Source: Octopus sinensis
Lineage: Eukaryota
Direction: 5' to 3'
Length of the DNA stretch: 64,000 nt
NCBI RefSeq assembly: GCF_006345805.1
Contig: NC_042999.1
Coordinates: forward strand, 116,002,001 to 116,066,000
Shown: positions 4,368 to 33,240 of the stretch, piece by piece
Numbering within the stretch: the first letter of the stretch is position 1
Layout of the letters: the number at the start of each line of letters is the position of its first letter
Program-made: the position numbers and the translations under genes
The notes under the pieces: generated by a model
Database searches by the model: none
Seen by the model: the letters and a program-made list of their open reading frames with translations, nothing else
Told to the model about the DNA's origin: nothing

Positions 4368-6905
4368 TGATTTCGTTTATTTGTCACAAGGGCGAAGGAT
4401 GAGGGGACAATACAAAGACAGACATAAAGTGTGTGAGGGTTTACATATAATGAAATAATAAAAAAGAATAAGAAAGAAAGTATACACGGTATACACTGAA
4501 AAAGAAGGAACATATGCATAGCATATAAAGGTTTAAAAAACAAAAGAAGGAGTAGGAATGATGATAGACATGTGACCCTCCTGATACAGGAATGTCTCTA
4601 GCGATAATCGAAGAACTCCGCTGTCCGAGATTTCCCTGAAACCCCAGGCGAAAGTGCTCTCTCCAATTCCTTCTCTCTAACTCACAGGTCTACACTTAGA
4701 GAAGTACCATCCACTCTTGTCATTTTCGCAACTTTCACCCACCTTTCAATAAACTCACTCGAGAACAGCACTTCCCTCTTCACTCTCAATTTCCTTTTCA
4801 AGTGAAACTTGAAGAAGTCAACGAGAGCTCTACCAAAGAGGAATGTATCCGTCCTCATGCCTTTCAGCCTTGTCCACCACACAACCTCTTTCACCACAGC
4901 CACCAGGCAAAGAGAAACTGCCTTGCCTGTCCGATTGAAGGAGGGCGGCGGTGCGATCATCACTATAGACTCGGCCGACAGACGAATCCGTCCCACACGT
5001 AACAGCCGCTGTTTGACATAATTCCACAAGTCAGCAATACCCGGACACTGAACGAGGGTGTGCAGAACGGTTTCGTCACACTGCGCGCAACTCGGACAAA
5101 CCCATCTGACAGCACATCCGTGCCTGTAGAGTTTATCGCGAACCGGTAGCGCCCCCCCCCCCTGTAGCGCTGCCAGGCCAAGGTCATCCGGAAATCATCC
5201 ATGATAGTTCCCGACCGGAAAGTCCTCCGGAACAGACTAGCCGGTTCGTTCTCGTCGGCGCCGAGAACGTCGTTGCACTTCTCCGCCATTAACCCTCTAT
5301 AAATTGCTAAATTGGAGCATCCACCGATCCCATTGTCCAACTGATAAAGGTCTGTGAACGCCTGACGATATTCTAGGTGCCAGGCGCCCAGTCTCGGTCT
5401 TTTCTTTATCCAGGCCTGCAGCTCCGTCAAGGAGACGAGCTGCAGAAAGACGAACCTCACAAACGGAGACCACACACGATCACCTTCCAGAAATCGTTGC
5501 AGGTGGCGTAACCTAAAAGCGTGTCTGCGCATTAGGAGCTACGGCATACCTAATCCGCCACTCAGAAGATGCTGGCAACAGGCTGACTGCCTGACCATTG
5601 GAATGCGTCTCTACCACAATAACTTAAATAAGAGACGCCTCAACCTGGTCAAACAGTAACAGGGACAAGGCACGACGGTCAGGTGATAAATAATAACGGA
5701 GGCGATGTACACATTCGCCACCTCTGCCCGACCTTTCAAAGACAGCTCCTTCTCAGCCCATTTTTTGGTAAGACTGGCTACCCTGTTCGCCTCCTCGTCC
5801 CAGTTCTTATCAACCAGTTCGAAAAGGAGGCTTCTTAGCTGTTGCAGCTTCTGAAGCAGTAGCTCGAGTGCCAATACGTACAGAAGAGGCGACGGTGGGC
5901 AGCCCTGATGGACCGAGCGTGCGATGCCAAACGGCTCCAATAGGTGGCCGTTTACTTTGACCATTGAAGAGGTACCGCTGTGCATTGCAGCGATCCAGCC
6001 TCTGAAAACGGGTCCGAAACCGCCTACTTTCAGTACAGCTTTCAAGTAGTGATGGTCGACCCTATCGATTGCTCTTGATTGATCCAAATTGGTCAGAGCA
6101 CCCACGAAGCCAGCTTTGGTTCCAGCCCTCTCTATGATATATCGCATAAGGTGGAGGTTGTCGTGGATAGACCTGCTCGGGATTGCGGGTGTTTGCCATT
6201 CTGCGACCAGGCTACCAAAGACAAGCGCCAGCCTTTTCGCTAACACCTTGGCCAAAATCTTAAACTCTGTGTTTAGCAGAGTTATGGGCCTTAGTTCAGA
6301 CAACGAAACCTTCGTGTTTCGCTTCGAAGGATCATTCTCGCCGTTAACACACCGGTCGCAATGCCCTTTTTAATCGCTTCTTCTAATTTGCTATCTAGTT
6401 CACCCTCTGATCTATTCCTTTCTATTGCTAACTCTTTCCTAACTGCGATCGATTCTGTTCTAATCGCTCTCTTCAGGGTGGCTCATCAACAGGTGTTGAC
6501 GATTGCCCTCGTCAACTGTCACTTAACTAGTTCACTAATCCGATACTTGTAGTCTTTGCGTACCGGAAAGGTCACGTTTAACTTCCAGTAACCTGGTCCC
6601 TGTCTACGGGTCCTAGCTAACTCGACTGTGCAGATCACCAACTCGTGGTATATGTAACCGACCAATTCCAATTGTAAACAACCTACACTATCCCTATTCT
6701 CTGACCTAACAAATGCTCTATCTAGATACGATCTGGGTGACCCATTATGGTTGCTCTATGTCCACACTGGCACAGTCGATACCTATCAGGCAATTGGTAG
6801 TCTCTGAGTAAGTTTTTGAGGCATCCCCTTCTTCTGTGTACTAGCTCCACACAATCCTTCCGTGCGTCCAAAATCCCATTCCAGTACACTACTAAATTGC
6901 GAGAT
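4368..6905 (-). mobile_element. Tx1 (L1-clade) LINE remnant with internal deletions
   Basis: APE endonuclease pieces (WNGILD, SYLDR, GPGYWKLN) at 6570-6900. RT in ORF 5611-6303 (LRPITLLNTEFKILAKVLAKRL, LDQSRAIDRVDH, SVHQGCPPSPLLY), with the YADD block deleted. C-terminal region extends to 4682. The 3' UTR ends in AATAAA next to (CAT)n. Trinucleotide repeats flank both ends. Confidence 0.9.
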
Positions 6906-18598: not shown

Positions 18599-18934
18599 AA
18601 GCACACACACACACATTCAGCTTATCGCTTTTATCCATTACATTTTTCTTTTAATCGTCTGTCAATATTTATCTGTTTTTAGTTTTTGTTTTGTGGGTTT
18701 CACTTTAGCGACACCAGTTACACATGGTACCATGGTACTTTCCCACACTTGGTGTGGGAAAAGTTGTTTTTTAAGTTTTTGAAAGTTTGGATCAAAAACT
18801 GATGGCTACTACTCGTTAATTTAAAATTAAACCTATCAAAGGCGAGGGTCTTCCAGCGACCCCTAGCGCCCTCCAAATCTCTTAACGCCCCACTAGTGCC
18901 CCTTTGCTGCAAAATGCCTCCCTCGAGCTCCAAA

Positions 18935-19245
18935 TCCCCCTCCCCCATTTTTTCATTTCATATAGTCTGTTTACGTTTGCTTTAGGGTGTAGCGACCCAT
19001 GCAGCGTCATCAACTTTCTCGTCCTTCTATCCAGTGTTGATATTTCCTCCTTAGTCCATTTGAGGATGAACATGCTATATCTGACCACCGCAACTGCCCA
19101 GATATTCTTTGCTTTAATCAAATTTTTGGCATTTTGGTTGGATTTCAAAACCATCTTTATCCTTTTTTGATACGCCTCGCTGACCTTGACTTTCATTTCG
19201 CTGTGTAGAATGACATCCAGCTCCAAGATCCCTAAATATCGTCGG
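18935..19245 (-). mobile_element. R4/Dong-clade LINE fragment (RT thumb region)
   Basis: YLGILE...KRIKMVLKS..NAKNLIKA.NIWAVAVVRYS...LDRRTRKLMTLHGSLHPKANVNRLY...GRG. Confidence 0.85.
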
Positions 19246-19276
19246 GTTATTATTATTGTCATCATCATCATCATCA

Positions 19277-19343
<67 letters not shown>

Positions 19344-20365
19344 GACGTCGCACAGTATACAATATCGTGAGGTTGTTGATTGAAGCTATTGTGTCTAGCG
19401 AGTGTTTGTACTGTCAAGTCACAAGTACCTCACATAGACAGTACTTTACGCAATATGCGTGCAGTTCCAAGTAATGCCGACTTTTGCAATACATCTAGAT
19501 TGTAAGTAATCTCTAGGTTTCCAGACTTTTCTTTTTTTTAGATTGGGTTGCATTGAACCCGATACTCCGATGACAATAGGGATAACCTTTATATTCGACT
19601 CTCGTAGCTGCCACATCTTAGCAATCTCAATTCTCAGGTCACCATATTTATCAGTCTTTTCTCTTTCTTTCATGATGATATGCTGCCCCCCTGGCACTGC
19701 CACGCCAGTTATTAGGCACTCTTGTTTGTCCTTCCTAAAGGTTATTATATCCAGCCTTCGATGCTCTAATACCTTATCTATCTAGAAGTCAAGTCCCAGA
19801 GGAGTTTTGCGTTCCCCTTTTTGTCCATTACCTTTTCCGGTGTATGTTGGTACCAAGTACTCGTTATGTCGTATCCATACTTCCTGCATAGTAGCCAGTG
19901 GAGGTTTTGGGCTACCTTGTCGAGTCTGGGCTTGTACTCGTTCTGTACAAGACTTTAACAAGCACTAACAATGTGAGTCGCGCTTTCGACCCTCTTCCCA
20001 CACATTCGACAGAAGTTCGTTGCACTAGTATGGTATATATCCCTTTTCACTTAGTTGGTATTCAATGCCTGATCCTGAGCAGCGATGATTAGGCTTTCAG
20101 TATTCTTTCTTAGGTCACCCTTGTTGAGCCACCTTCGTGATGCTTTCTGGGTTTTTTTTAATGTTATTATCATGGTGGTACTGACCATGTAATTCCATGC
20201 AGAGTAGGGTTTCTTCTCTCTCGTTGGCTATTCATGATCGGAATTCGTGAGCACTCTCAAGTCCATTTTTGGTAAATCTTTCTGCATTAGCAGCATACTG
20301 TAGCAGGTCTTGTTTGCTGTTTACCAAATATTCTGCCATGTTTCTTCTTTCACTGTTGATACACT
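19277..20365 (-). mobile_element. R4/Dong-clade LINE 3' part: CCHC finger, restriction-like endonuclease, 3' UTR and (TAA)n tail
   Basis: LHGITWS(MHGQY-like), IIAAQDQALNT, CRMCG..HIVSAC, LHWLLCRKYG, WYQHTPEKV, AVPG..EREKTDKYGDL.IEIAKMW..KVIPIVIG across frameshifts. The 3' end joins (TAA)n at 19277-19341. Confidence 0.85.
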
Positions 20366-22738: not shown

Positions 22739-22794
22739 TCTCGACATATGTTTCGAAGACTGCATATTCTTAATGCCGTCTTCTCATCAGGAAA
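22739..22794 (-). ncRNA. Type-I hammerhead ribozyme, intact core
   Basis: tttc-CTGATGA-gaagac.gcat/taagaat/atgc.gtcttc-GAAA-catatg-TC-gaga. Confidence 0.82.
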
Positions 22795-23807: not shown

Positions 23808-24246
23808 CGGCCATCGGGAAAATACTATGAAAAATGACCGTTATACAAAGGGGAATTACTGTGTGATTGACCGTTATTAAGACAAAAGAGCTATTTGATT
23901 GACCACTAAGTGAAGGGAGGGAATGAAAGTAAGGGTGTAAAAAGTTCATAGTATCCGCGTGAGCGCGCATGCTTATACCTACATATGCGCGCCCGCACAC
24001 CCACGTGCATGCGCCTAAAAGTATACATATACAATCCCCATGTTAAAATTGACACTGAATTAACAGCTGTAAACAAAATTACAGTAAAGGCTCATTTCTA
24101 AAAATAAACACTGAAAATGGTATGGCATCATTTCTAAAGATAACCAAGCAACTACTACTTCTATCCACAGGAATGTTTATAAAGGACAAAATTTAACCAG
24201 TCAACCACAGTTGAAACCAATGAACACAACTGTCACCACCACCATA

Positions 24247-24289
24247 TGAACCTGAAGATTGCATAAGTGCAAGAAAGTATACTAGTTCA
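24247..24289 (+). ncRNA. 43-nt minimal type-I hammerhead ribozyme, fully paired
   Basis: tgaac-CTGAAGA-ttgca/taag/tgcaa-GAAA-gtatac-TA-gttca. Confidence 0.85.
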
Positions 24290-24443
24290 ATAAGAATGGA
24301 CATTTAATATTGCGTTTGTTCAATAAGAATAGACAATTAATACTTCATTTCATTTCTTTTTACTCTGTTATTTTATATCTTATATTAATATTATAAGAAT
24401 ATAATAAAACGTGAAAAACAGACGGAGTTGGAATTCCTTTGAG

Positions 24444-24502
<59 letters not shown>

Positions 24503-31786: not shown

Positions 31787-33240
31787 TCATCATCATCATC
31801 ATCATCGTTTAACGTCCGCTTTCCATGCTAGCATGGGTTGGACGGTTCAACTGGGGTCTGGGAAGCCCGAAGATATATATATATATATATATAGTCCACC
31901 TGTGCATACCTTCCTTCTTGTGACACTTGTGAAGACCTGTTGAGGCAAGTGAAAATCAAATCAAAACAAATCAAAATAGATGAACATCAATGGAATCTGT
32001 ATCTTTGTGGTACTAGTGCCGGTGGCACACACTTTGTGGTACCAGTGCCGGTGGCACACATGAGAACCATCCGAACGTGGCCGTAGCCAGTTCCGCATCG
32101 ACCGGCCTCCGTGCTGTGGGCACGTAACAAACACCATCCGATCATGGCCGCTCGCCAGCCTCATCTGGCACCTGTGTCGGTGGCACATAAAAAACACCTT
32201 CCGAAGACCCGACAAGACTAGTCAGTCCACCTGTGCATACCTTCCTTCCTTCTTGTGACACTTGTGAAGACCGGTTGAGGCAAGTGAAAATCAAATCAAA
32301 ATAGACAAAATAGATGAACATCAATGGAATTTGTATCTTGTGGTACCAGTGCCTGTGGCACACAAGAAATCCATCAGTGCCGTAGTCAGTGCGGTGGGCA
32401 CATGACAAACACCATCCGATCGTGGCCGTTCGCCAGCCTCATCTAGCACCTGTGTCGGTGGCACATAAAAACACCATCCGAAGACCCGGCAAGACTAGTC
32501 AGGCCATAACCCATGGCCCCTACCTGGGACGTAGTCAGTCCACCTGTGCATACCTTCCTTCTTGTGACACTTGTGAAGACCTGTTGAGGCAAGTGAAAAT
32601 CAAATCAAAACAAATCAAAATAGATGAACATCAATGGAATTTGTATCTTTGTGGTACCAGTGCCGGTGGCACGTGGCACATAAGAAAACCATCCGAACGT
32701 GGCCGTAGCCAGTACCGCATCGACTGGCCTCCGTGCTGTGGGCACGTAACAAGCACCATCCGATCGTGGCCGTTTGCCAGCCTCATCTGGCACCTGTGTC
32801 GGTGGCACATAAAAAACACCATCCGAGCGTGGCCGTCTGCCAGCCTCGTCTGGCACCTGTGTCGGTGGCACATAAAAACAACCATCCGAGCGTGGCCGTC
32901 TGCCAGCCTCGTCTGGCACCTGTGTCGGTGGCACATAAAAAACACCATCCGAGCGTGGCTGTCTGCCAGCCTCGTCTGGCACCTGTGTCGGTGGCACATA
33001 AAAAACACCATCCGAGCGTGGCCGTTTGTCAGCCTCGTCTGGCACCTGTGTCGGTGGCACATAAAATCACCCACTACACTCTCGGAGTGGTTGGCGTTAG
33101 GAAGGGCATCCAGCTGTAGAAACACTGCCAGATCTGACTGGACTGGTGCAGCTTTCGGGCTCCCCAGACCCCAGTTGAACCGTCCAACCCATGCTAGCAT
33201 GGAAAGCGGACGTTAAATGATGATGATGATGATGATGATG
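31787..33240 (+). mobile_element. Amplified RTE-LINE 3' UTR block: three ~315-330-bp units, five 61-62-bp units, (GAT)n tail, and an inverted tail copy at the left end
   Basis: Unit gtccacctgtgcataccttcc..gaacatcaatggaat at ~31893, ~32225 and ~32537. caccatccgagcgtggccg..gtgtcggtggcacataaaaa five times at ~32754-33066. 31787-31872 is the reverse complement of ~33152-33240. The same tail follows RTE ORF remnants elsewhere in the window. Confidence 0.8.

Follow-up and report, generated by a model that had tools for sequence, protein, structure and literature searches.

The hammerhead motif and other features of the window

The window, that is, the whole 64-kb stretch of DNA that was analyzed, carries on its forward strand a 43-nt motif (24247..24289) with the type I hammerhead topology known from Penelope-like elements (PLEs). 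Stem I is composed of tgaac (24247-51) and gttca (24285-89), and stem II of ttgca (24259-63) and tgcaa (24268-72), which enclose the 4-nt loop taag (24264-67); both stems have 5 bp. The elements that place a sequence among type I hammerheads, namely, CUGANGA, GAAA, and UH, are present in this order, as CTGAAGA (CUGAAGA) at 24252-58, GAAA at 24273-76, and, following gtatac at 24277-82, T (U16.1) at 24283 and A (A17) at 24284. The palindrome AGTATACT occupies 24276-83; by prediction, two copies pair through it as a helix III of 8 bp. In hammerhead numbering, the cut lies 3' of the triplet CUA (24282-84), which gives a predicted cleavage point at 24284/24285. Every part described in the first-pass annotation (core, stems I and II, palindrome, and CUA) was found in its place, the cut that it predicted after 24284 agrees with the anatomy read here, and the U-A pair with which stem II opens was confirmed as a departure from the usual G-C.

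Both strands of the window were scanned for the core plus stems, and two motifs were obtained, at 24252 on the forward strand and at 22790 on the reverse strand. In 100 block-wise dinucleotide shuffles of the window, loose motifs appeared about 0.1 times per shuffle, while the strict form of the 24252 motif appeared in none. A chance match to the hammerhead consensus would agree with the folding energy, which by itself is ordinary (z −0.19), and with the Rfam search, in which the window motif had no hammerhead match either at the gathering score or at E ≤ 10; the matches found in the window at E ≤ 10 were microsatellite noise. However, besides the shuffles, the motif pattern with the 8-nt palindrome AGTATACT had 62 genome matches against 2 for its control, the pattern with the 6-nt palindrome AGTACT had 963 against 20, and the location of the motif, a PLE pseudo-LTR, is the one known from publications. 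A chance match is refuted by this position and by the family evidence, and its probability is practically nil. The Rfam models seem insensitive to this form of motif, and the more canonical 22790 motif was likewise undetected.

The second motif (22739-22794, reverse strand), which was found in the motif scan, belongs to an unrelated repeat family with 2456 candidates in the genome. It is more canonical than the 24247-24289 motif, with G10.1-C11.1, a GUC triplet, the palindrome ACATATGT, and a 4-bp stem I containing a G.U pair, and about 25 nt of loop II, present in each of the 11 other fetched loci, are missing from the window copy. Its family is probably another PLE, judging from a weak RT match upstream of the motif in one locus (L132). 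It lies on the strand opposite to the 24252 motif and has a different palindrome, and no second copy of the latter's family was found within the window.

A further Penelope-like element has left disrupted RT frames at 1317-2629 on the reverse strand (tblastn E 4e-24 to P0001, and open reading frames). The features at 4682-6369 and 18882-19781 (both on the reverse strand) and at 32673-33066, recognized from repeats and open reading frames, comprise a 63-bp tandem array and remains whose motifs point to two other non-LTR retrotransposons. No host gene was recognized among the window's open reading frames of at least 110 aa, a search by which short exons would be missed.

The host element and its copies in the genome

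The motif is contained in a 354-nt fragment (24092..24445, forward strand), in which no open reading frame remains and the optional tail is absent. Family matches and collinear copies identify it as the 5'-truncated pseudo-LTR, or 3' end fragment, of a Penelope-like retrotransposon with an endonuclease; the earlier finding on 24247..24289 did not name a host element. The genome was searched with 24040-24445, and 48 matches were obtained from 40 scored of 2129 candidates; for the copies other than the window fragment, the identity to it was 79–96%. The left edge of the element was placed at about 24092, where the family matches begin (query base 53). A left boundary at 24040 was rejected because 24038-24082, directly left of the fragment, is a short piece of a different, abundant repeat that continues as such in reads and contigs. 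The check on copy number and arrangement around 24040-24445 that the first-pass annotation had proposed was thus answered by many copies, which elsewhere in the genome include tandem (L135) and inverted (L029) arrangements.

Two copies (L003 and L066) are about 92% identical to 24092-24445 and continue upstream, collinearly, into the remains of RT and GIY-YIG frames. In most other copies, the sequence upstream of the point equivalent to 24092 is the end of the GIY-YIG frame (REKDFINKFKPKLNKQ), about 240 nt before the motif. Fuller copies occur in a sister subfamily that is about 80% identical in the body. In one of them (L064), the repeat flanks a 777-aa frame on both sides, and this frame matched the Pfam families GIY-YIG (E 6e-5, above the cut-off) and RVT_1 (E 2.4e-6, just below the cut-off). 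Pfam matches were found in two of the three proteins from fuller sister copies and in none of three short ORF fragments from close copies. The order of RT followed by a C-terminal GIY-YIG with a CCHH motif (CIKCPNC...H...H in P0001) is thus seen in the relatives and not in the truncated window copy. The relatives also contain the RT–EN linker motif CX2-5CxxC (KCNDRRCATC in L005 and KCNDSRCGT in P0001), which defines the Neptune/Nematis clade (PMC8557442). The CxxxxCxxC form of the linker suggests that the host is a Neptune or Nematis element. Among named sequences, those closest to the element's protein come from molluscs.

In the sister locus L135, the motif recurs in units of 4263 and 4267 bp arranged head to tail; L029 is an inverted truncated pair. 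An extra tail of about 35–40 nt was present in 13 of the 19 right-end rows, absent in five (including the window copy), and interrupted in one; an optional tail of 30–40 bp is a PLE signature (PMC8557442). The family thus has the marks of EN+ PLEs, namely, pseudo-LTRs, partial tandems, inverted truncated copies, and an optional tail (L064, L135, and L029), and these marks together with the RT and GIY-YIG frames identify an endonuclease-bearing Penelope-like element (PMC8557442). According to the repeat annotation, an (AT)27 microsatellite (24446..24499) abuts the end of the window fragment, and most other copies likewise terminate at TA-type repeats; the microsatellite is likely to be the insertion target.

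The fragment, being about 350 bp long and non-coding and having a type I hammerhead, could also be read as a non-LTR retrozyme, that is, a short non-autonomous tandem repeat that makes circular RNA. Such a repeat is absent from the window locus, where a single unit was found, and the left ends of the copies are ragged, with most running on into the endonuclease frame. These two observations largely refute the retrozyme reading of 24092-24445, which we consider highly improbable.

Several further observations were made on the fragment and the sister element. A 33-bp direct duplication, 85% identical, lies at 24285-24350 of the window and starts at the 3' strand of stem I; it is common to the subfamily, with one unit missing in 2 of 30 rows. 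The long inverted repeat around the PLE fragment (I18) is of low complexity. In the sister element, a long upstream frame of about 430 aa, for which no Pfam match was found, overlaps the RT frame at a run of A and a run of T (L064:2741-2900 and the matching stretches of L056-L058, L060, and L135). The two frames stand in a −1 relation in four of the six sister copies, which suggests a programmed frameshift, blurred by assembly indel errors (25 gaps between tandem units). A frameshift of this type is mentioned for PLEs in the legend of Fig. 1 of PMC8557442.

Folding, decay, and variation of the motif

As a monomer, the motif has a helix III of 2 bp closed by a 4-nt loop, and the probability of the A15.1-U16.1 pair was 0.023. 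A stable helix III was therefore lacking in the monomer, and in the folding models, which are blind to tertiary contacts, it forms only between two copies. Thus, the motif was rightly called fully paired in the first-pass annotation as regards stems I and II, and wrongly as regards helix III of a single molecule. When two 43-mers were cofolded, the MFE structure was exactly a double hammerhead, at −18.8 kcal/mol compared with −9.4 kcal/mol (2 × −4.7) for the separate molecules, and this structure persisted when the two copies were folded in their 81-nt context. The palindrome had been taken earlier as a pointer to a dimer; the cofold and the low helix III probability of the monomer support that suggestion, and self-cleavage of the motif is predicted to depend on a second copy.

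The surroundings influenced the fold considerably. In 24230-24310 (81 nt), the middle pairs of helices I and II had probabilities of 0.92 and 0.99, respectively; when the full 354-nt fragment was folded, stem I fell to 0.09, and a rival hairpin reached 0.75. This predicted hairpin (GUUCA/UGGAC, 24285..24301, forward strand) can draw the 3' strand of stem I into its own pairing, and its probability ranged from 0.03 to 0.77, strongly dependent on the flanks folded. In the two-copy MFE structure of the full fragment, the palindrome helix was retained and stem I was lost. As all five pairs of the hairpin occur in 29 of 60 relatives and fewer in the remainder, a conserved switch is not claimed.

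The state of the window copy was assessed in 30 aligned rows, which include the window copy itself and three near-duplicate pairs. The match to the majority was 94.0% in the motif columns and 94.0% and 95.6% in the flanks; the motif is thus no better conserved than its flanks and shows no signal of selection. The core was kept in 9 of the 30 rows and the fully intact motif in 4, compared with 14.3 and 3.1, respectively, expected from neutral decay by a rough calculation on the same rows. Against the column majority of the other 29 rows, the window copy has 10 substitutions and a 4-nt insertion over 350 columns. It is thus a decaying copy spared so far within the 43 bases of the motif. Few copies are intact as this one is, and the U10.1-A11.1 pair is better formed in it than the corresponding position in most relatives. 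The claim that 24247..24289 is the best candidate for an active ribozyme is not supported: it is part of a solo 5'-truncated fragment, has no partner in the window, and is as intact as neutral decay predicts. Moreover, paralogues that do not conserve the core, which the annotation itself had named as counting against activity, are the majority.

The motif could be an efficient stand-alone ribozyme with a function at the window locus, as all core bases and both stems are intact and the middle pairs of stems I and II exceed 0.9 in the 81-nt context. However, this is contradicted by the helix III probability of the monomer, the absence of G10.1-C11.1, the lack of a selection signal in the aligned copies, and the lack of a recognized host gene among the longer open reading frames. 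In addition, a published single minimal hammerhead (min-HHR) showed no cleavage, and its dimers and trimers cleaved weakly (PMC4209133). A stand-alone ribozyme is therefore very improbable, efficient cleavage by the monomer is hardly to be expected, and a host function of the window locus is scarcely credible; a constructed dimer of the window sequence would, somewhat more probably than otherwise, cleave measurably at high Mg2+. Reads from three raw RNA runs of a single study, sampled at about 6% of each run, fell on 24000-24445 in numbers of 39, 51, and 20; none was at least 99% alike, and no pile-up of ends was seen, at a depth too low to bear on expression or cleavage and in runs whose species may differ from that of the window. 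The sister motif had 15, 15, and 6 reads in the same runs, with none at least 99% alike at this low depth and with the same possible difference of species.

The variation of the motif was followed in 60 fetched relatives, namely, the first 30 in order of the 62 matches with the 8-nt palindrome and the first 30 of the 963 with the 6-nt palindrome, which are kin and not independent. The palindrome of the sister subfamily, AGTACT, is two bases shorter than AGTATACT, and the palindrome is thus retained through a 2-nt change in length. Stem I, which was outside the search pattern, was fully paired in 42 of the 60 relatives and had four of its five pairs in another nine, and one subfamily (L081 and L085) swaps it to GGGAC/GTCCC with one extra C. 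Covariation in 12 hand-picked rows was weak, with a score of 0.129 against 0.086 in shuffled rows (15 of 500), and other measures on the same rows gave 37–312 of 500.

A G-C pair is preferred in hammerheads at 10.1-11.1. Among the 60 relatives, this pair was never found; the position was U.U in 28, A.A in 14, U-A (as in the window copy) in 11, C.A in 6, and G.A in 1, and was thus unpaired in 49 and paired in 11. In published PLE hammerheads, G10.1-C11.1 is listed as highly conserved, being typical of the consensus and outside its definition (PMC4209133), and passages of PMC544870 and PMC2837043 give no rate for U-A at this position. The core version with U4C had 344 exact matches in the genome and none in the control. 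It occurs, together with U.U at 10.1-11.1, in L135 (G000:C2:68657500-68667400), where the head-to-tail 4.27-kb units are 99.2% identical. From this identity, the U4C sister subfamily appears to be the youngest and looks very young. Of the leads obtained, U4C alone is somewhat new, and it bears on the family and not on the window locus.

These variants raise the question of whether the motif of the whole lineage has mostly lost catalysis and is kept as a signal for RNA dimerization or protein binding, or is drifting. The open 10.1-11.1 position and the U4C matches, including the nearly identical tandem units, agree with such a loss, as does the PAc (Poseidon) element of Anolis carolinensis, whose hammerhead catalytic mutants inserted normally in vitro (PMC11167929). 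On the other hand, subfamilies with about 20% divergence in the body still share the palindrome and the remaining core positions, and in a viroid, U4C strongly lowered activity in vitro without abolishing it and allowed infectivity (PMC3088659). Hence, a general loss of catalysis is considered unlikely, though worth keeping in mind. An equally tentative reading is that this PLE lineage carries a non-standard hammerhead, with the core-adjacent pair mostly open and U4C fixed in the youngest tandem subfamily, and yet kept amplifying.

Interpretation and comparison with published hammerheads

The motif is very likely a Penelope-like pseudo-LTR hammerhead in a lone 354-base end fragment, predicted to cut only as two copies paired through the palindrome. 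In the parent element, transcription of head-to-tail units would place at least two motifs on one RNA, spaced by about 4.3 kb. The palindromes of two motifs would pair into an 8-bp helix III, and stem I would form crosswise between the two copies. Cleavage of the RNA after CUA would follow, at a probably slow rate and perhaps with the aid of the element's protein. As cutting is predicted only when two copies pair, the window copy is likely to be idle, although RNAs transcribed at other loci could pair with it in trans.

The window locus itself matters little, as it is one among many decaying PLE ends. The main use of the family lies in the natural series present in one genome, with 8- or 6-nt palindromes, U-A, U.U, or A.A at 10.1-11.1, and U4 or C4, which could be used to test whether the spread of a PLE requires cleavage by its hammerhead. 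If the non-standard-hammerhead reading were true, the genome would provide evidence for the spread of PLEs whose ribozyme is damped or dead and whose palindrome is kept for pairing their RNAs; the U-A version in the window would then serve as the more active control of the series.

Among four of the five articles found for hammerhead ribozymes and octopus, none was on the window family by title or the start of the abstract, and repeat databases may already catalogue it. The arrangement itself, a dimer-type hammerhead in a PLE pseudo-LTR, is already described, and the window copy is another member. Cervera and De la Pena (2014) reported minimal hammerheads in the pseudo-LTRs of metazoan PLEs, among them forms whose helix III is small and palindromic; most occurred as single truncated copies (PMC4209133). 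The window motif shares with them the type I topology, the 5-bp helix I, the intact core, the palindromic 15.2-16.2 and loop 3 of the dimer-type architecture, and the location in a pseudo-LTR, mostly in single dispersed truncated copies. It differs from that consensus in having U-A for G10.1-C11.1, where its relatives are mostly unpaired, in a helix II of at most 5 bp compared with 6–8 bp, and, in the simplest parse, in lacking a bulged base between A9 and 10.1.

The function of PLE hammerheads is described as unclear (PMC8557442). In the case of PAc, the hammerhead required the protein of the element for cleavage, and no ends were seen by RNA-seq at the point of cutting (PMC11167929). The window family resembles PAc in the pseudo-LTR hammerhead of an element with RT plus GIY-YIG at its C terminus, in the optional tail, and in the AT-rich targets. 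The cleavage of PAc was assayed and is protein-assisted, whereas the window motif is known from its sequence; moreover, PAc is a Poseidon element, whereas the host of the window family has the CxxxxCxxC linker typical of Neptune/Nematis. Non-LTR retrozymes, which are related to PLE pseudo-LTRs, likewise consist of a short unit that is non-coding and has a type I hammerhead (PMC7229834; bioRxiv 10.64898/2026.07.22.740005). Unlike these short-unit tandem arrays, the window fragment derives from a coding element, of which it is the broken end.
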